Part shown: in pieces, positions 1 through 57,929 of the stretch | Layout of the letters: every line of letters begins with the position of its first letter | How positions within the stretch are numbered: the stretch's first letter is position 1 | Virus record (IMG/VR): IMGVR_UViG_2698536610_000002 | Strand: one strand, 5' to 3' | DNA from: a virus | Taxonomy: Duplodnaviria; Heunggongvirae; Uroviricota; Caudoviricetes | Length of the DNA stretch: 57,929 bases | The notes under the pieces: generated by a model | The model's input: only the letters and a program-made list of their open reading frames with translations | What the model was told of the DNA's origin: nothing | Databases searched by the model: none | Program-made: the position numbers and the translations under genes

Positions 1-1143
1 CTATGCTGTTTTGATATCTACGATAACCCAGTCTTTACCACGATCATCATTGTATCGGTCGGTCATTTTTCTGGATTTATGGCCTAACAACTTTTGCGTA
101 TCCAGACCCTGTTCCCGATATAACCGTTCTGACAGAGATCGCTGCTCATGAAATGTGGGCGCAGTTCCTTGCTCCCATTTTATGCCACATTTTTCCCTGG
201 CCTTTTTAAAAGCCGTTGTCAGAGTATTTGCAGAAACCTGGTCTCCTCTGTTTGCTTGAGAGGTAGTGTGACGGTAATGGACCAGATATTTACTAACAAC
301 AGCATCCCTGCACTGAGATATAACTTCACGAAGGGTAATATTCAGAGCATCGCATTTCAGGTTAAGCGGAATAGCAAGTTTTGAACCGGTTTTTTCCTGA
401 GTAATGTGCAACATGTCGTCCCATATATCAGAGAATTTCAAATTGCAGATATCGCCTAAACGTTGTCCAGTAACAAGAGCAAGTAGCATGCCGCATTTTA
501 AATAGGGCTGCCGTCTGCTTACGCTTTCAAATATTGCCTGCCATTCGGGCAGTGACAATCTTTGGCGGTTTACTCGATTTCGCGGTTGTTTTGTTGCCTG
601 CGCTGGGTTAAATCCTGGCGGAACATGTCCTGCGTGTTGTGCTTCTTTGAAGACGTCGATCAACACCATTCTCACGACTTGCGCCATCCTGTTATGACCT
701 TCAGCCTTTACAGCATCAATTATTTCGGCAATATCAAGTGCGGTAATATCCTTGAGGTGTTGCATTCCACAATGCTCACGGAAAAGACGAATGGGTTTGC
801 CTTTTTGCCGATAGGAGTTGGGTCTTAGTTCATTATGTTGCAGCCTGTCCTCCTGGATAGAAATATATTTATCAAGCCATTCTGTCACCGTAATGTCTGA
901 GCGCCTGCCTTTCATTCTTTCCAGACGCTCATTGACGCTTAATATTTGTCTGGTACGTTGTTCAGCAATAATGGTATTTGCTTCAGTAGCAACTTGTTTT
1001 GCTTCATTCTCATCAGTTCCTAAGCTATGAAAACGACCGGATAGTGGATGTTTGTATTGCCAATATACCTTTCCGGTTCGCTTATCTAATTTGCAATATA
1101 AATTGGGTATAGAGATTTTGTGAGATCGGGGTCTAGCAGCCAT
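1..1143 (-). CDS. int: Phage tyrosine integrase (lambda Int family)
   Basis: 380-aa ORF; C-terminal FHEQRSLSERLY...LLGHKS...RYNDDRG aligns with the lambda Int catalytic region; overlaps the downstream xis-like gene. Confidence 0.9.
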   Translation of the reverse strand: MAARPRSHKISIPNLYCKLDKRTGKVYWQYKHPLSGRFHSLGTDENEAKQVATEANTIIAEQRTRQILSVNERLERMKGRRSDITVTEWLDKYISIQEDRLQHNELRPNSYRQKGKPIRLFREHCGMQHLKDITALDIAEIIDAVKAEGHNRMAQVVRMVLIDVFKEAQHAGHVPPGFNPAQATKQPRNRVNRQRLSLPEWQAIFESVSRRQPYLKCGMLLALVTGQRLGDICNLKFSDIWDDMLHITQEKTGSKLAIPLNLKCDALNITLREVISQCRDAVVSKYLVHYRHTTSQANRGDQVSANTLTTAFKKAREKCGIKWEQGTAPTFHEQRSLSERLYREQGLDTQKLLGHKSRKMTDRYNDDRGKDWVIVDIKTA

Positions 1144-1369
1144 CAGCGATTATCCGTTGGAGTTTTGGGTTTGCGTTTATTGGGAGTTGCGGTTCTGCCA
1201 GCGTTCCTACAAAACGGGAATTTCGGTCAATCATCCAGTAGCGACCAACTTTTATAGCGGGTGGGGCCATCATTTTCCCTTGCGCGTATTTTTTCAGAAC
1301 TCGCTCACTTGGTGCTAAGTCCCCAAATTCTTCTTTAGCCCAGTCCTGTAAAGTGATTAGTCGAGACAT
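1133..1369 (-). CDS. xis: Excisionase (Xis-like)
   Basis: 78-aa ORF, N-terminus MSRLITLQDW resembles lambda Xis MYLTLQEW; strong SD (gaggagg) upstream; 11-nt overlap with int. Confidence 0.7.
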   Translation of the reverse strand: MSRLITLQDWAKEEFGDLAPSERVLKKYAQGKMMAPPAIKVGRYWMIDRNSRFVGTLAEPQLPINANPKLQRIIADGC

Positions 1370-1508
1370 TTGTCCTCCTCTTAGCTGCTGAGGGAGTTTG
1401 TGACCGATATATCTGACATGATATTAAGCTCATGGCAGGTACATCTCTTGACTGGTCATAGAGATAAATTTAATGCTGAGAAATGCAGTATTGAATTTAT
1501 CAATTTTT

Positions 1509-1748
1509 CTATTTCCTGCGTATGGCACGTAACTTCTTAATGTGTTCTGCCGTTTCGATCTCTTCTGCTATCCGATCTGCATCAGCTTTATTCACAGGTT
1601 CAAAGTCATGATTAAAGCGGAACATGCTGGCGATACATGTTCTGCCTTTTCGGATGTAGTGAACTTTGTTGTGGGTAGAACGCAGGATTTTGCAGGGAGT
1701 GCCGTGGTGGTCGACGTACCAGGTGTTAGGAAAAATGATTCTGAACAT
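1509..1748 (-). CDS. Hypothetical early-region protein
   Basis: 79-aa ORF in the int-exo small-ORF block; no recognisable motif. Confidence 0.4.
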   Translation of the reverse strand: MFRIIFPNTWYVDHHGTPCKILRSTHNKVHYIRKGRTCIASMFRFNHDFEPVNKADADRIAEEIETAEHIKKLRAIRRK

Positions 1749-1795
1749 TTTTACACCTCAGTTGGACGATGTTGAAATTTGCTGCTTTGAGGCCA

Positions 1796-2014
1796 TCACA
1801 ATCCCCATTGTTTGTTCTTAAGTTCGATCTCCTCCTGGCAACTTGCACAAGTCCGACAACCCTGAACGGCCAGGCGTCTTCGTTCATCTATGGGATCGCC
1901 ACACTTACAACAATGAGTGGCAGATATAGCCTGGTGGTTCAGACGACGCATTTTTATTGCTGTATTGCGCTGTAATTCTTCGATTTCTGATGCTGAATCA
2001 ATGATGTCTGCCAT
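1796..2014 (-). CDS. TraR/DksA-family C4 zinc-finger protein
   Basis: 72 aa with CCKCGDPIDERRRLAVQGCRTCASC four-cysteine motif typical of phage TraR-like proteins. Confidence 0.7.
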   Translation of the reverse strand: MADIIDSASEIEELQRNTAIKMRRLNHQAISATHCCKCGDPIDERRRLAVQGCRTCASCQEEIELKNKQWGL

Positions 2015-2112
2015 CTTCCATTAATCCCTGAATTGTTGGTTAATACGCTTGAGGGTGAATGCGAATAATAAAAAAGGAGCCTGTAGCTCCCTGATGATTT
2101 TGCTTTTCATGT

Positions 2113-2328
2113 TCATCGCTCCTTAAAGAAGCCGTTTAACATGCCGATCGCCAGGCTTAAATGAGTCGGTGTGAATCCCATCAGCGTTACCGTTTCGCGG
2201 TGCTTCTTCAGTACGCTACGGCAAATGTCATCGACGTTTTTATCCGGAAACTGCTGTCTGGCTTTTTTGATTTCAGAATTAGCCTGACGGGCAATGCTGC
2301 GAAGGGCGTTTTCCTGCTGAGGTGTCAT
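2113..2328 (-). CDS. Hypothetical protein
   Basis: ORF track 2113-2394; start moved to the internal Met (MTPQQENAL...) because the upstream extension is Cys/His-rich and overlaps the neighbour. Confidence 0.4.
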   Translation of the reverse strand: MTPQQENALRSIARQANSEIKKARQQFPDKNVDDICRSVLKKHRETVTLMGFTPTHLSLAIGMLNGFFKER

Positions 2329-2404
2329 TGAACAAGTCCCATGTCGGCAAGCATAAGCACACAGAATATGAAGCCCGCTGCCAGAAAAATGCATTCAGTG
2401 GTTG

Positions 2405-2596
2405 TCATACCTGGTCTCTCTCATCTGCTTCTGCTTTCGCCACCATCATTTCCAGCTTTTGTGAAAGGGATGCGGCTAACGTATGAAATTCTTCGTCTGT
2501 TTCTACTGGTATTGGCACAAACCTGACTCCAATTTGAGCGAGGCTATGTGCCATCTCGATACTCGTTCTTAACTCAACGGGAGATGCTTTATGCAT
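2405..2596 (-). CDS. Hypothetical protein
   Basis: 63-aa ORF in the small-ORF block between exo and xis. Confidence 0.35.
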   Translation of the reverse strand: MHKASPVELRTSIEMAHSLAQIGVRFVPIPVETDEEFHTLAASLSQKLEMMVAKAEADERDQV

Positions 2597-52437: not shown

Positions 52438-54420
52438 TTGCTCAACAAGTATAATGGAGTTCCCGTGGATACAGCAGAACATGATGGCAAGTTTGCTTGG
52501 GCTAGTTTTTATGAGGCTTTTGCCAACGCGTTACTGACTTGGCGAAATCGTAGAGATGAATTAGTCAAAGGTATTCATCTAATTGCCTCGGGTGTGGAAG
52601 GAATGTCCCATCTGCAGGACAAATCTATTATGGGAGAGATCTTTCCCTTAAAAGACATTTGTCCGTTTACTACTATGGGCTTGTTCAATCGTAACTTGAC
52701 CGACAGCAATCGCAAAATTATTGCTGCCAAGCTAGCGAATTTGTTGGGCGTGAACGAACCGATTCCTGACTCCTTTGCCGGAATCCCTCTGTTGAATAAC
52801 CAAAAATCTTGGTTCTTTGGTTATGAAAAGTCACGCGACCCTAATGACATTGAATGCTTGTGGGAAATGTTCTCACAGGCAATGACCTTTGCGGATAACC
52901 AGAATACTAACTCTGCAGACTTCACTGCCGCATATGACATCGCTTCTACAGTAATGAATGTCGGTTGGAATCTCACCATGGGGTTGTACTGGACCCGTCC
53001 TTGGTTCTACCCCACTTTAGATAGCCAGTCGCAGTATTACATTCAGACAGTGTTAAACATTAAGATCATTAAAAACGGGGCAAAAGGTCGCTGTAGTGGA
53101 CAAAGTTACCTGAGTCTTATGCGGGCGCTGAACGAGGTCTTTACCCAACCAAACTATCCGGTTCATTCTTTCCCAGAACTTTCCTTATCAGCGTGGAATA
53201 CAGATCTTAGCCAGTCTAAAGATGAGGTGGCAAATAGAACGTGGAAAGCCTCTTTACTGAATAAAATTAAGGCGTTATGCCTGAAAAAAAATGGCCCTTA
53301 TTTCACTGCTTCGGAGTTGGAAGAAAACTACTTGGACGTTTTCAAGGTAGAGCATCCTGAGAGCAAAACTGTTACAAGCTCAATCTACTTTTATCTACAG
53401 AAACTATGCAATGATGATGAGTTAAAGTCCCTCGAGTCCGGAAATTATGAATACCTGAATTTTGAGAAAAACGAATCCCAGACGATAACTGAGGAAACTG
53501 TCGAAGAGAGTGCGCTGTCGCCAAAACTCACCCACGTTCCTTATGACATCAGTCATCTGGTGCAGGATGGCTGTTTCTTGGAAGAGGCTAAGATCCAACT
53601 CACACTTCAGCGCCTGATCGACAAGAAAAACCTGATATTACAAGGACCACCCGGAACTGGAAAAACTTGGTTAGCGCGACGTCTGGCGTACTGCTTGATG
53701 GGAGAAAAAGCACCTGAGCGTATTAGCGCGGTGCAATTTCACCCGAACCTCTCTTACGAAGACTTTATTCGCGGCTGGCGTCCAGGTAAAGAAGGGCAAT
53801 TGACGCTAATTGATGGACCTTTTGTAAATGCAATCAAAACTGCAGTCAATAATCCTACCTCGAAATATGTGGTGATAATTGAAGAGATTAATCGTGGCAA
53901 TCCGGCGCAAATCTTCGGTGAAACACTCACGTTGATGGAAGCAGATAAACGCACGCCGACTGAGGCATTATCTCTTTCCTATCCTAAAAATGCTGATGAA
54001 AAAATATACATTCCTGAGAATCTATATATCATCGGTACGATGAATATTGCAGACCGCTCACTCGCACTACTTGACCTAGCGCTGCGCCGTCGTTTCGCGT
54101 TTATCGATCTAAAGCCAGCTTTTAATGACGCGTGGAGAAACTGGGTAAATTATAATTACGCAATTGATTTTGACATGTTAGCATTCATCAAATCTCGACT
54201 GACGGTATTAAACGATATGCTGGCAAAAGATGTTACCTTAGGACCACAGTTTTGTATCGGTCACAGCTATGTCACCCCAGCTATCGGCCAAAAAATCAAC
54301 GATGCCCAGGCTTGGTATGAACAAGTCGTTGATACAGAGATCTGCCCTTTGCTCGCCGAATATTGGTTCGATGCTCCAAATAAAGTCGATGAAGCCAGAA
54401 AAGTGTTATTAGCAAAATGA
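52438..54420 (+). CDS. McrB-like AAA+ GTPase with a long (~400 aa) N-terminal domain; start codon uncertain (TTG 52438 or GTG 52465)
   Basis: C-terminal half aligns with E. coli McrB: LILQGPPGTGKTWLARRLAY, VVIIEEINRGNPAQIFGE, YIIGTMNIADRSLALLDLALRRRFAFIDL. Confidence 0.8.
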   Translation: MLNKYNGVPVDTAEHDGKFAWASFYEAFANALLTWRNRRDELVKGIHLIASGVEGMSHLQDKSIMGEIFPLKDICPFTTMGLFNRNLTDSNRKIIAAKLANLLGVNEPIPDSFAGIPLLNNQKSWFFGYEKSRDPNDIECLWEMFSQAMTFADNQNTNSADFTAAYDIASTVMNVGWNLTMGLYWTRPWFYPTLDSQSQYYIQTVLNIKIIKNGAKGRCSGQSYLSLMRALNEVFTQPNYPVHSFPELSLSAWNTDLSQSKDEVANRTWKASLLNKIKALCLKKNGPYFTASELEENYLDVFKVEHPESKTVTSSIYFYLQKLCNDDELKSLESGNYEYLNFEKNESQTITEETVEESALSPKLTHVPYDISHLVQDGCFLEEAKIQLTLQRLIDKKNLILQGPPGTGKTWLARRLAYCLMGEKAPERISAVQFHPNLSYEDFIRGWRPGKEGQLTLIDGPFVNAIKTAVNNPTSKYVVIIEEINRGNPAQIFGETLTLMEADKRTPTEALSLSYPKNADEKIYIPENLYIIGTMNIADRSLALLDLALRRRFAFIDLKPAFNDAWRNWVNYNYAIDFDMLAFIKSRLTVLNDMLAKDVTLGPQFCIGHSYVTPAIGQKINDAQAWYEQVVDTEICPLLAEYWFDAPNKVDEARKVLLAK

Positions 54421-55538
54421 CGACAATAACCGGGAGTGAGCAACATACAGCATCACGTATTCCCATGCGAAATATCTGGATGCTGATGCTGTACGCTTCA
54501 GATCTGTTTCGCCAGTTAGGGCGCAATCAGATCGCAGTAGAAGATAACCCAGCAGAAATCCCCGACCTGGTGGCGACAATCCTCCTTCATGAGATTACGC
54601 TGCGCCGACGTCGCAATTTAAATATGGGATACCAAACTTGTCATGCGGCCCTGAACCGGGTGAGAGGGCGCATTGACATACTGTATACTGCCAGTCATCA
54701 ACTGCTGGAACGGGGACAGGTTGCCTGCCATTTTCAAGACATAACCCTCAACACCCCCCGAAATCGCTATGTTCGCTGTGCGTTAGAACGTCTGGCCTCA
54801 ATCATAGTGAAACCGTCTTTGGCGGCAGATTGCCATTTTATGGCAATATCACTTCGCCGTGAGGGGATAAATGGAGGATATCCTGCCCCCCACGAATTAC
54901 CCTCAGTGTGGCGTTTTGGACGCCATGATGCCGCAGATAAACCGATGGTCGATGCCGCACGATTAGCTTTTGAACTGCTGATGCCGACCGAAGATCAAGG
55001 CCAATATCTTTTACCTGCGCCCTCAAATAACCTTTACTGGATGAGAAGACTATTTGAAAAAGGTATCGCTGGCTTATATCGTGTACACCTTGACAAAACA
55101 ACTTGGCAGGTCTCTGCAGGGAAAGAGCTGAAATGGGCGTTGAGCGATCAAAGTGCAGGTAGTGCAGAGATTTTCCCGACAATGAAGTCAGACATTATTC
55201 TGGAACACAAGACTGCCCAGCGGCGTATTATTATCGATACCAAATTTAATTCGATTCTGACAAAGGGTTGGCATCGGGAGCAATCACTACGTAATGGCTA
55301 TATTTATCAGCTATATACCTACCTTAGAACACAGGAGAACAAGACGGATCCGCTTTCGCTCAATGCCGCTGGTCTTCTACTTCATCCAGCTGTTGGCTAT
55401 ATGCTTAATGAGTATGTTGTCACTCAGGGACATAAGATCCATTTTGCTACAGTAGATATGACGGTAGATGCTAAAGCAATTAAAAAACAATTGCTGGCAA
55501 TAGCCCATGATTGTGCAGGAGTCGCGGTTGATGACTAA
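54417..55538 (+). CDS. McrC-like nuclease subunit
   Basis: 373 aa; ATGA start/stop overlap with the McrB-like gene; PD-(D/E)xK-like IIIDTKFN and QLYTYL motifs in the C-terminal half. Confidence 0.75.
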   Translation: MTTITGSEQHTASRIPMRNIWMLMLYASDLFRQLGRNQIAVEDNPAEIPDLVATILLHEITLRRRRNLNMGYQTCHAALNRVRGRIDILYTASHQLLERGQVACHFQDITLNTPRNRYVRCALERLASIIVKPSLAADCHFMAISLRREGINGGYPAPHELPSVWRFGRHDAADKPMVDAARLAFELLMPTEDQGQYLLPAPSNNLYWMRRLFEKGIAGLYRVHLDKTTWQVSAGKELKWALSDQSAGSAEIFPTMKSDIILEHKTAQRRIIIDTKFNSILTKGWHREQSLRNGYIYQLYTYLRTQENKTDPLSLNAAGLLLHPAVGYMLNEYVVTQGHKIHFATVDMTVDAKAIKKQLLAIAHDCAGVAVDD

Positions 55539-56238
55539 CCATCCTATAGGGCACTGGCTGTAATATAATCAATAGTTTCAATTAAGTAGCTGTTATCCGT
55601 GCTTAGTCATCATATGACGCACCACGGTCTAATTTTCCTGCTCATACATTGATATATCCTTGTCGTGCCCGGAAAGTCGCAGTCCACTATGAGGTATACC
55701 GATTGCCAGCACCAAAAGCTTCTTTGTGATTATTATATCGGGGAATGCCTATTTTTTTAGTGACAATATCAGATAGCAATTAATAAGCGGTGCCGGTAAT
55801 GGATGTTATGTTTAATGTATAGACACAGCCATCATAAACTAAACGTCTGTTGTTCGCTCATAACCGACATTTATCTCAGTTATGGAGGATAATTATGTAT
55901 GCAGATAATGGGGCAGACAGTCGTGGAGTAAACAAGGTTTTGCACTGCTTGGCGGCATCGTTATCTTATTTTTAATTATGTGCCTCTTAACATAAGTTGG
56001 GACAAAACAGAGACACATAAGGTCTCACAAAGGTCTGCAAGGCCTCACATGTATTGAGATGTTAATAAAATGTAGACTTGTAATTTGGATATAAATGGTA
56101 GAGAAAACCTTTCCCCAAAATAAAAACGAACGTCAATGAAATCAAACGGTTGAATAAAGTTAATTTTGGCTAATAAAAAGACAATAAAATAATTTTTATC
56201 ATTAAATATCAATGACTTGAATTCATGGTTTTTATATA

Positions 56239-56403
56239 CTGCTGCGCCATATGGGCTGGACTGAAGCCGCAGACCTGATTGTTAAAGGTATGGAAGGCGC
56301 AATCAATGCGAAGACCGTAACCTATGACTTCGAGCGTCTGATGGAAGGCGCTAAACTGCTGAAATGTTCAGAATTTGGTGATGCGATCATCAAGAACATG
56401 TAA
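56239..56403 (+). pseudogene. icd: 3' fragment of isocitrate dehydrogenase gene (icd'), displaced copy marking a phage attachment site
   Basis: Translates [54 protein letters not shown], the Icd C-terminus; in-frame stop 6 codons upstream shows it is only a fragment. Confidence 0.8.
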
Positions 56404-56426
56404 TCACTACATGTGTTTAATATTGC

Positions 56427-56449
56427 AACGGGCGTATAACACGCCCGTT
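56427..56449 (+). terminator. Rho-independent terminator after icd' (aacgggcgt-ataac-acgcccgtt then T-run)
   Basis: Perfect 9-bp stem followed by gttttatttat; a degenerate second copy occurs at 57287-57309. Confidence 0.75.
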
Positions 56450-56505
56450 GTTTTATTTATGTAGGTATTATTAATAGCATATCGAGCATATTTATATAAA
56501 ACCCT

Positions 56506-56829
56506 TTACTTGAGCCCATATGGGCATATTTTTATAATGCAACTATTATGCAAACATTTATTTGTTATTTTGCTTTCTCCTGGAGGACACTCTTGACTGC
56601 TTTTGAGTAGACTCCATAAATCCTTGTTGAATGGTGCGATGTTATAAATAGTAATAGGATATTCTTTATCTTTAAGGATAATTCCAGATTTAACCGGTGT
56701 AAATATACTGCCAGGAGGGAGAAATATAGTAGATTGATACCAGATGATCATTTTCATATTACCCCATATGGCTGAAAAAGATATGCCGCATGAAGGTTGA
56801 ATTATCGTGTCAATTACTATCCACTTCAT
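56506..56829 (-). CDS. Hypothetical ORF in an AT-rich islet between the two terminator copies
   Basis: 107-aa ORF, very AT-rich; no recognisable motif. Confidence 0.25.
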
Positions 56830-57524
56830 TTGTTATGTCTTATCCCACGGTATTTAATATAGTTCATTTGGATGTTCATTTCTTTATTTTGCATATGAGT
56901 ATATTACCCCTTCAAAAAATAAATTAATTAAAACGATTGCTTATATAAAACAAAATTTAAAGCAAGGAATCTCAATGGATGTTAAACAAAATGAGATTTA
57001 GTGAAAACAATAAATTATTCACTTCGTTTTAGATTTGTTTAGCTATAATGTTATACATTCAAATGACTGAACATCCTGTAATTAAAACATAGCCTTTATG
57101 CTACTTTGTGCCAATTTGCTAAACATTATGGTTGCCTTTTTATATAACGATAATAATGAATATAAGCATGACATGAGAATAAGGTTTCAATTTTTGAGTT
57201 ATATAGGAAAGGTTTAACCTGTTCCTGGCTAAAATACATATAACTGGATGATGACTAAACCAAAACACATGTGCGTTAAGTATTGAAACGGGCGTATGGC
57301 ACACCCGTTGTTTTTATAAATATATTAACCGTTATAAAATAACGTATAGAAAGTCAAGTGATCACATTTCAAATATCAATTTGATAGTATTGGCATGGTG
57401 ATTATTTATGGGTAGCAATAAAAGGACAGTATTTATCATCCATAGGTATAGTCTCTGTACTTTTATTCCCATTATGCTAATGCCTTACTGAATTATGAAG
57501 CATTTCTTAAGCATCCAACTTTAG

Positions 57525-57929
57525 CTAGATTAATGGTTTATTATTTTCTACATCTTCAATATATAAAAGCGTATTATCAATGGCGTAGTAACTGCGTTTG
57601 TTATGATTAACATCAGTAACCCACCGGAAAACGCCCGCGCCTGCTAGTGTTGAACAGTATTCCCGAAATGTAGATTTTCCGCAAATATGAAGCAATGCGG
57701 CCTCTTTTATTTTAGCAGGGTTCTTGGTCGTACTAACTTTTAACAGGTTCCTGGTTCCTCTTAATAACAAAACCGTGTCATCGTGAGTAATAATTCTGAT
57801 GTTATCCGTAGCCAGATAATAAATGTAATGTGCAATACGGTGATGTTTTAATTCTGAATAAAACCAGGAGAAGTTTTGCTCTTTTCTCACTTGCTCAAAC
57901 ATCTTTTGAAAAACAACGACCTGATCCAT
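57525..57929 (-). CDS. Hypothetical protein, possibly extending beyond the window end
   Basis: 134-aa ORF whose first Met is at the last codon of the window; 5' end may be truncated by the window. Confidence 0.4.
   Translation of the reverse strand: MDQVVVFQKMFEQVRKEQNFSWFYSELKHHRIAHYIYYLATDNIRIITHDDTVLLLRGTRNLLKVSTTKNPAKIKEAALLHICGKSTFREYCSTLAGAGVFRWVTDVNHNKRSYYAIDNTLLYIEDVENNKPLI

Follow-up and report, generated by a model that had tools for sequence, protein, structure and literature searches.

Likely scars of earlier insertions beside icd in Escherichia coli: a degenerate second terminator copy bounds the iraM islet to the right of a phage-21-type attR

At tRNA and tmRNA hot spots, where elements integrate one after another at a shared attB, remnants of older ones are moved outward, and each integration leaves a partial duplicate of the target 3′ end. 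The icd locus differs from these arrays of att fossils because its target is a protein-coding gene with a terminator, and the surviving fossil would be a terminator hairpin. The closest described systems are phage 21 and the e14 element of strain K-12. The phage 21 record (OL657228.1) presents, in this order, a 165-nt icd-3′ pseudogene, a terminator, three annotated arm-type sites (P1-P3), int, and xis. Phages of the phage-21 type bring along the final 165 nt of icd together with a terminator, so that icd stays intact in the lysogen. In K-12, the counterpart of the displaced icd end is named icdC (b4519), and the e14 attR region has the order icdC-iraM-ymgK-ymgL-ycgX-bluR, the same as that found to the right of the prophage described here. 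The icd attachment system is classical (references cited in PMC12803456), and the relationship between icd and icdC has been treated in PMC13626634. This first layer of the locus (icdC, phage-21-type attR, and iraM) is already known and annotated.

The window analysed here is the whole 57,929-nt stretch of Caudoviricetes DNA deposited as IMG/VR record IMGVR_UViG_2698536610_000002 (Table 1). Its integrase shares 377 of 380 residues with phage 21 Int, compared with only about 59-60% identity to IntE of e14, and contains the Pfam domains Arm-DNA-bind_1 and Phage_integrase. A first-pass annotation, made from the letters alone, had compared the locus with e14 and phage 21 as elements integrating into the 3′ end of icd, and the integrase identity and the corresponding layout of phage 21 agree with it. 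An intact icd gene is expected beyond the integrase end. In strain 65COLEC, the stretch that matches window 1-2500 with 100% identity begins 113 nt past the stop of an intact icd, and in three further loci intact icd likewise adjoins the integrase at attL. By this likeness, icd is placed just left of window position 1, beyond the integrase end.

At the other end, window 56201-56456 aligns with phage 21, namely with the left arm of its attP and its 165-nt icd surrogate. This interval is matched continuously by 28 Escherichia phage records (phage 21, ev017, 4A7, and others), which puts the junction between phage arm and icd homology at 56238/56239 and indicates that phage-carried homology stops at the T-run of T1, the first terminator copy. 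The full integration module is seen in phage 21, whereas the attR half alone is visible in the window. Judged from these alignments, the window end is the attR junction of a ~56-kb lambdoid prophage with a phage-21-type integrase, inserted in icd. The last prophage cargo at the right end, just before attR, consists of the McrB-like and McrC genes, which stand in the place of the sitA-like genes of phage 21. RefSeq annotates the same McrBC genes in strain 1943, where McrC is split into two ORFs. The icdC fragment of K-12 is displaced by the 15-kb e14, that of the window by a ~56-kb phage-21-type prophage with McrBC cargo.

Table 1. Features of the prophage and of the icd-derived region, numbered by position in the window.
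Feature	Coordinates	Strand	Basis
Tyrosine integrase, phage-21 type, marker of the prophage left end	1..1143	-	Identity to phage 21 Int; Pfam
McrB-like AAA+ protein (660 aa)	52438-54420	+	Pfam AAA_5 at 7.9e-27
McrC (373 aa)	54417-55538	+	Pfam McrBC at 4.5e-21
Final bases of the prophage right arm, attP-derived side of attR	56201..56238	+	Phage-record matches; direct alignment with phage 21
icdC, displaced icd 3′ end, pseudogene, 54 codons + stop	56239..56403	+	Nucleotide identity to icd 3′ ends; RefSeq; K-12 name
T1, intact icd terminator copy	56409..56454	+	Hairpin 56425-56451 + T-run
iraM islet, 812 nt, 29.6% G+C	56455..57266		Presence/absence unit in E. coli
iraM, RssB anti-adaptor	56506..56829	-	104/107 aa identical to K-12 b1160; RefSeq and cluster names
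ymgK, 14-aa small protein MFSKLAQSSIKAMF, in the iraM upstream region	57082..57126	-	Identical to K-12 ymgK
T2, degenerate terminator copy	57267..57315	+	Hairpin 57287-57309 with C-A mismatch
T2 3′ flank, e14-type attL arm-like, degenerate TTATCAAAA repeats	57316..57365	+	Alignments
ymgL, 36-aa small protein	57362..57472	-	Pfam YmgL at 2e-21; RefSeq
ycgX, DUF1398 protein	57525..57929	-	134/134 aa identical to K-12 YcgX; Pfam DUF1398 at 1.2e-47

The displaced fragment, taken in the first-pass annotation as the C-terminal 54 codons of icd, is borne out at the nucleotide level: 150-156 of its 165 nt (91-94.5%) are identical to the icd 3′ ends compared, namely K-12 icd, K-12 icdC (153/165), the phage 21 copy, and prophage-free icd. 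Its left boundary (56238/56239) falls where the phage arm gives way to icd in the attP of phage 21, and DNA identical to it is annotated in RefSeq as a 5′-truncated isocitrate dehydrogenase pseudogene. The C-terminus of the Pfam family Iso_dh matches this short fragment with a score below gathering. The hairpin described behind the fragment is also present, with an 11-bp stem, a loop of 5, and a TTTTATTT tail in the terminator scan, and folds at -22.3 kcal/mol (z = -4.6). By these features, a stable G+C-rich stem-loop followed by a U-tract, T1 is predicted to be an intrinsic (Rho-independent) terminator. The icdC fragment (+) and iraM (-) converge on T1, which would separate iraM from icdC and from any prophage read-through and is the predicted icd terminator in prophage-free strains.

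A permissive Rfam search of 55500-57929 gave a sub-threshold match to the tpke11 RNA at T1 (26.4 bits, where the gathering score is 43) and a spurious sub-threshold snoRNA match; both were rejected as hairpin look-alikes. The 10-mer CCATATGGGC occurs close to the presumed attachment core where icdC starts (56247-56266), and again at 56504-56523, as part of the perfect 12-nt palindrome GCCCATATGGGC at the iraM 3′ end. The recurrence is perhaps meaningless, as about three common 10-mers are expected by chance in such a region.

The DNA between the two terminator copies had been described as AT-rich with one dubious ORF. The first part holds, the islet being far poorer in G+C than the whole window (49.6%); the second does not, since the ORF is iraM and ymgK is also located inside. 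The ORF is assigned as the IraM anti-adaptor on its identity to the K-12 protein, and window iraM shares locus and neighbours with the K-12 gene. The corresponding protein cluster is named IraM and has a precomputed PF11183 match; a Pfam scan of window IraM gave no match at E <= 0.001. IraM is known to protect RpoS from RssB/ClpXP (PMC4045071; bioRxiv 10.1101/2023.01.07.523045). Induced by low Mg2+, it binds RssB and stabilises RpoS under Mg2+ starvation (PMC4045071; PMC3877760; bioRxiv 10.1101/2023.01.07.523045). According to PMC4045071, iraM is missing from CFT073, is limited to Escherichia and Shigella, and is placed "on e14". The gene is not on e14; it sits beyond attR, no matter which prophage is inserted in icd, in what is probably a separate and older relic. 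Since iraM is outside attR, loss or gain of the current prophage leaves it in place.

Among the neighbouring genes, YmgK and YmgL are small proteins which have been experimentally detected (PMC6001520). YmgK and YcgX are identical in K-12, where T1 and T2 are both present with the same spacing as in the window. The genes ymgL and ycgX follow T2, which lies downstream of them in the sense of their transcription (minus strand). DUF1398 is typical of lambdoid prophages, and the ycgX homologue ybcV is found inside a DLP12-like prophage. In lambdoid phages, among them Stx phages, relatives of IraM with 57-75% amino acid identity occupy the moron slot between Q and the holin, or the interval between stx2B and the SASA esterase, and further relatives are found in integrase-bearing islands. 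When the iraM-homologue locus of phage 1717 is compared with the window islet, the coding sequence alone matches (72%); the islet outside it has no similarity to that locus at the DNA level. No integrase or excisionase relics were detected to the right of icdC by tblastn with phage-21-type Int, IntE, and XisE in three genomes, and no structural phage genes survive in the islet or to its right. In Stx2 phages, IraM-family genes were also observed directly downstream of stx2B on the opposite strand (phage 1717, locus L019, 5001-5324; loci L026-L029). Stx2 phages with such genes may also influence host RpoS stability.

The second terminator copy, proposed from the letters at 57287-57309 as degenerate, is upheld by alignment. 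Positions 57272-57314 are identical to 56412-56454 at 36 of 43 positions, with a spacing of 860 nt, against a mean of 27/43 and a maximum of 31/43 for the best 43-mer match in 200 first-order Markov resamplings of the 2.4-kb region. The + strand of T2 folds at -11.4 kcal/mol (z = 0.09), a stability no better than that of shuffled sequence. With its C-A mismatch, T2 lacks the stable stem of an intrinsic terminator on this strand and is missed by the terminator scan; its U-tract is intact. The minus strand folds better (-16.0 kcal/mol, z = -2.5), as the C-A mismatch becomes a G-U pair there, and has a poor U-tract, UUUCAAUACUU. The T2 stem is perfect in strain 405, carries C-A in the window, and carries A-G in K-12, where it is mismatched on either strand. 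The stems of T1 and of the single-terminator copies described below stay perfect, unlike that of T2, and this variability among lineages fits relaxed constraint.

In the window, the repeat starts 6 nt past the icd stop codon, and no icd-like sequence was found upstream of T2 (blastn with word size 7; anchored alignment, p = 0.81). Among the species-representative genomes holding icd, the hairpin motif occurs only beside icd, icdC, or iraM, and the remaining matches are short contigs of the icd locus filed under Sutterella and Veillonella. The scan of genome contigs hit Citrobacter, E. albertii, and one further Escherichia species. In these two Escherichia species, the motif matched the prophage attL copy only, the pattern being too strict for diverged T2-type hairpins.

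Two further observations concern the terminator copies. In strain EC17CM6, IS200C is located after both T1 and T2 (locus L023, 767-1500 and 2345-3080) at the same position and in the same orientation (CCCGTTGTTTTT|GTGCACAG...), and in strain 2022H048 it lies likewise after the single terminator (locus L005, 6018-6760); IS200C thus seems to favour the hairpin with its T-run as a target. The icd terminator carried by e14 in K-12 (locus L002, 2375-2432) has the stem GGGAGCG/CGCTCCC instead of GGGCGT/ACGCCC. Pairing is preserved by two-sided changes (-18.1 kcal/mol, z = -3.6), a pattern consistent with selection in lysogens to keep icd termination functional.

The proposal that the locus records successive integrations or a decayed second element gains support from a divergent haplotype that lies outside the window and retains icd codons before its own copy of T2 (T2′). 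It was reached from the protein search for IraM relatives through an independent 2.9-kb Logan contig and is present in 19 complete E. coli genomes including R32_14_1F (NZ_CP074749.1, 2826059-2834271). The variant order is icd, an e14-type terminator and arm, a 455-aa ORF, an IS5 remnant, trkG, iraM′, a ymgB-like gene, T2′, ymgL′, ycgX′, and bluR. The locus of R32_14_1F is thus larger than that of the window, having an e14-type attL, the 455-aa protein, the IS5 remnant, trkG, and the ymgB-like gene in addition, and it differs in having neither icdC nor T1 beside iraM′. The segment of iraM′, its flanks, T2′, ymgL, and ycgX is orthologous to the standard locus at 73-80% nucleotide identity, in the same order and beside bluR (iraM′, 74% amino acid identity to iraM; ycgX′, 79-80% nucleotide identity). 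As for the additional genes, the 455-aa product is hypothetical, trkG is a Rac-prophage gene in K-12, the ymgB/ariR-family paralogue is directly upstream of iraM′, and the bluR product has an ordinary E. coli RefSeq protein id.

T2′ has the T2-specific variant TTAAGTATT. Upstream of it, at a colinear distance, lies ATCAAGAATATGT(T)AA, i.e., the final codons of icd with the stop, and the independent contig contains this sequence as well. In anchored alignment of the sequence before T2′ with the phage-21-type icd copy, none of 3,000 shuffles matched the observed score, over 30 and 45 nt alike. Relative to the variant, the standard allele is without about 220 nt between CCAAAAC and TTAAGTATT. A displaced icd piece adjoining the outer repeat is accordingly absent in the window and present in the variant haplotype. 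Since the variant keeps icd codons exactly where the standard allele has its gap, T2 most plausibly represents the terminator that once belonged to an earlier displaced icd end, and the window boundary upstream of T2 a deletion junction. The support for this reading of T2 is indirect and depends on the variant haplotype being orthologous.

The sequence on the other side of T2 adds a second resemblance. The 50 nt of AT-rich DNA after the T2 hairpin were aligned, starting right after the hairpin with the T-run included, to four e14-type attL flanks and scored z = 2.7-5.9 (p <= 0.007). This likeness is found in the window, in K-12, in single-terminator genomes, and in the variant haplotype. The T2 flank shows no similarity to the phage 21 arm, nor does the T1 flank to the e14-type arm. 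The e14-type attL arm contains three TTATCAAAA repeats, which are putative arm-type sites by analogy with the annotated P1-P3 of phage 21. More weakly, the T2 flank may be a decayed e14-type arm. Because of this likeness and of the occurrence of the ycgX family, DUF1398, in lambdoid prophages, ymgL-ycgX could be the cargo of a still older e14-like relic, to which perhaps slightly better than an even chance is given. A likeness of the T2 flank to C. amalonaticus was considered as proof that a single-terminator site is ancestral and was set aside, for it shows only that T2 and its flank have long been neighbours, and this flank is itself e14-arm-like. Arms of the e14 type also occur after icd in Citrobacter (Citrobacter sp. 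Cu233 and C. braakii), so that the icd attachment system extends beyond Escherichia. Elements with IntE and differing left-end cargo were observed in Shigella flexneri and in strain WP7, the latter with an AAA ATPase.

The islet is polymorphic in E. coli. In a survey of 5,426 complete genomes (at least 80% of the query covered), the islet with both repeats was found in 3,862, ymgL-ycgX in 5,004, and the icd end followed by one terminator and then by the ymgL flank in 1,037 (19%), the query for the last being the junction rebuilt from strain 2022H048. When strain 405 (islet-bearing and prophage-free), K-12, the window, and the single-terminator strain A21 were aligned, the difference was exactly one repeat unit plus the 812 nt. 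In single-terminator genomes, icd and ymgL-ycgX converge on one hairpin. In the ymgL-ycgX flank, five such genomes form a cluster with 0-1% divergence, which is 2.6-3.6% from three islet-bearing lineages, whose divergence from one another is 2.6-3.7%; from both kinds alike, the variant haplotype differs by 18-20%. With the variant as outgroup, three polarised sites nest the single-terminator group within the islet-bearing lineages and one puts it outside. All six single-terminator copies examined combine a T1-like hairpin with a T2-like 3′ flank, as a single crossover between T1 and T2 close to the 3′ arm would produce. Secondary loss of the islet by recombination between the terminator repeats is the favoured origin of the single-terminator state and is considered fairly likely.

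In the O157:H7 strain Z1811, a phage-21-type integrase beside icd and a long DLP12-like prophage were observed, and megablast gave no match to iraM, T2, or ymgL-ycgX. The right-hand junction region of this strain seems to be missing or replaced, and a loss of this kind probably explains many of the ~420 genomes without ymgL-ycgX. Among the islet and ycgX matches, ten to sixteen are on plasmid-labelled records.

Taken as a stacked scheme, in which a phage-21-type attR lies beside the scars of earlier icd insertions and the iraM islet is a decayed relic, the history of the locus can be proposed with good confidence. At least one insertion of this kind would have come before the present one: an earlier icd-integrating element would have brought iraM, a moron-type gene of lambdoid phages, and displaced the then-resident icd end and terminator, the latter being the present-day T2. 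This element would then have decayed through deletions to 812 bp comprising iraM, its regulatory region, and ymgK, and the standard allele would also have lost what remained of the displaced icd coding end. Since then, T1 would have terminated icd in strains free of a prophage, and stem mutations would have built up in T2. On arrival of the phage-21-type prophage, the resident icd 3′ end with its terminator was pushed to the far end of the prophage, as icdC and T1. A relic of this kind is indicated by target-derived direct repeats, T1 and T2, at which the presence/absence polymorphism breaks exactly, and by cargo of a mobile type, with homologues in lambdoid phages and islands and a low G+C content; mobility genes, as reported above for three genomes, are lacking to the right of icdC.

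A different history, in which no icd end ever lay by T2, was weighed against this scheme. A small element with a ~46-bp terminator as its attachment sequence could have inserted behind icd, T2 being the original terminator and the single-terminator site the ancestral state. The start of the window repeat just after the icd stop, the lack of icd likeness upstream of T2, and the clean single-terminator site in 1,037 genomes speak for such an element, and the icd-proximal spacer of the single site resembles those beside the icd hairpin in Citrobacter loci, one of which, in C. braakii, has an e14-type flank. However, the last icd codons kept before T2′, and the ~220-nt gap of the standard allele at exactly that place, run against it, and neither such an element nor an integrase for it was seen; this history is therefore regarded as unlikely.

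T2 might also owe its presence to selection as a working terminator that ends the minus-strand transcript of ymgL-ycgX and so shields the iraM promoter, with its likeness to T1 due to function or to local duplication. The better minus-strand fold and the single hairpin shared by converging icd and ymgL-ycgX in single-terminator genomes are in keeping with such a role, whereas the poor U-tract on that strand and the mismatch on both strands in K-12 are not, and function leaves unexplained an identity that includes loop and flank as well as the icd codons of the variant. This possibility is judged improbable as a replacement for a scar origin, with which a function of T2 is nevertheless compatible. 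Least probable of all, and rejected, is that the hairpins are members of a dispersed repeat family, whether REP-like or associated with an insertion sequence, or match by chance. IS200C does follow both copies at an identical position in one strain, but it arrived later, with the hairpin and T-run as its target; the motif is restricted to icd-linked positions in genomes holding icd, and the observed identity exceeds the null maximum.

The stacked scheme may be extended, tentatively and at somewhat less than even odds, to a more general statement. The regulatory gene set to the right of icd that is specific to E. coli, with iraM, ymgK, ymgL, ycgX, and perhaps further genes, would owe its presence to serial integration and decay of icd-targeting prophages, each event leaving one terminator fossil, with T-phage, T1, and T2 as fossils, T2 and its flank as an ancient e14-like attL, and recombination between fossils as the process that removes iraM. 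In a limited literature search, no earlier description was found of T2 as a fossil, of the terminator-bounded relic, or of the less-decayed haplotype. This second layer is a modest addition of a familiar kind, and the understanding of the systems involved is unchanged.

For the biology of E. coli, the icd locus offers a case in which a regulator linking PhoPQ to RpoS stability would have been captured from phage cargo, and in which terminator duplicates can serve as a record of past events at an integration hot spot. The terminator repeats also provide a simple route to the presence/absence polymorphism of iraM. If the extended reading is true, recombination between terminator fossils would have removed iraM, and with it the connection from PhoP to RpoS, in about a fifth of E. 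coli genomes.
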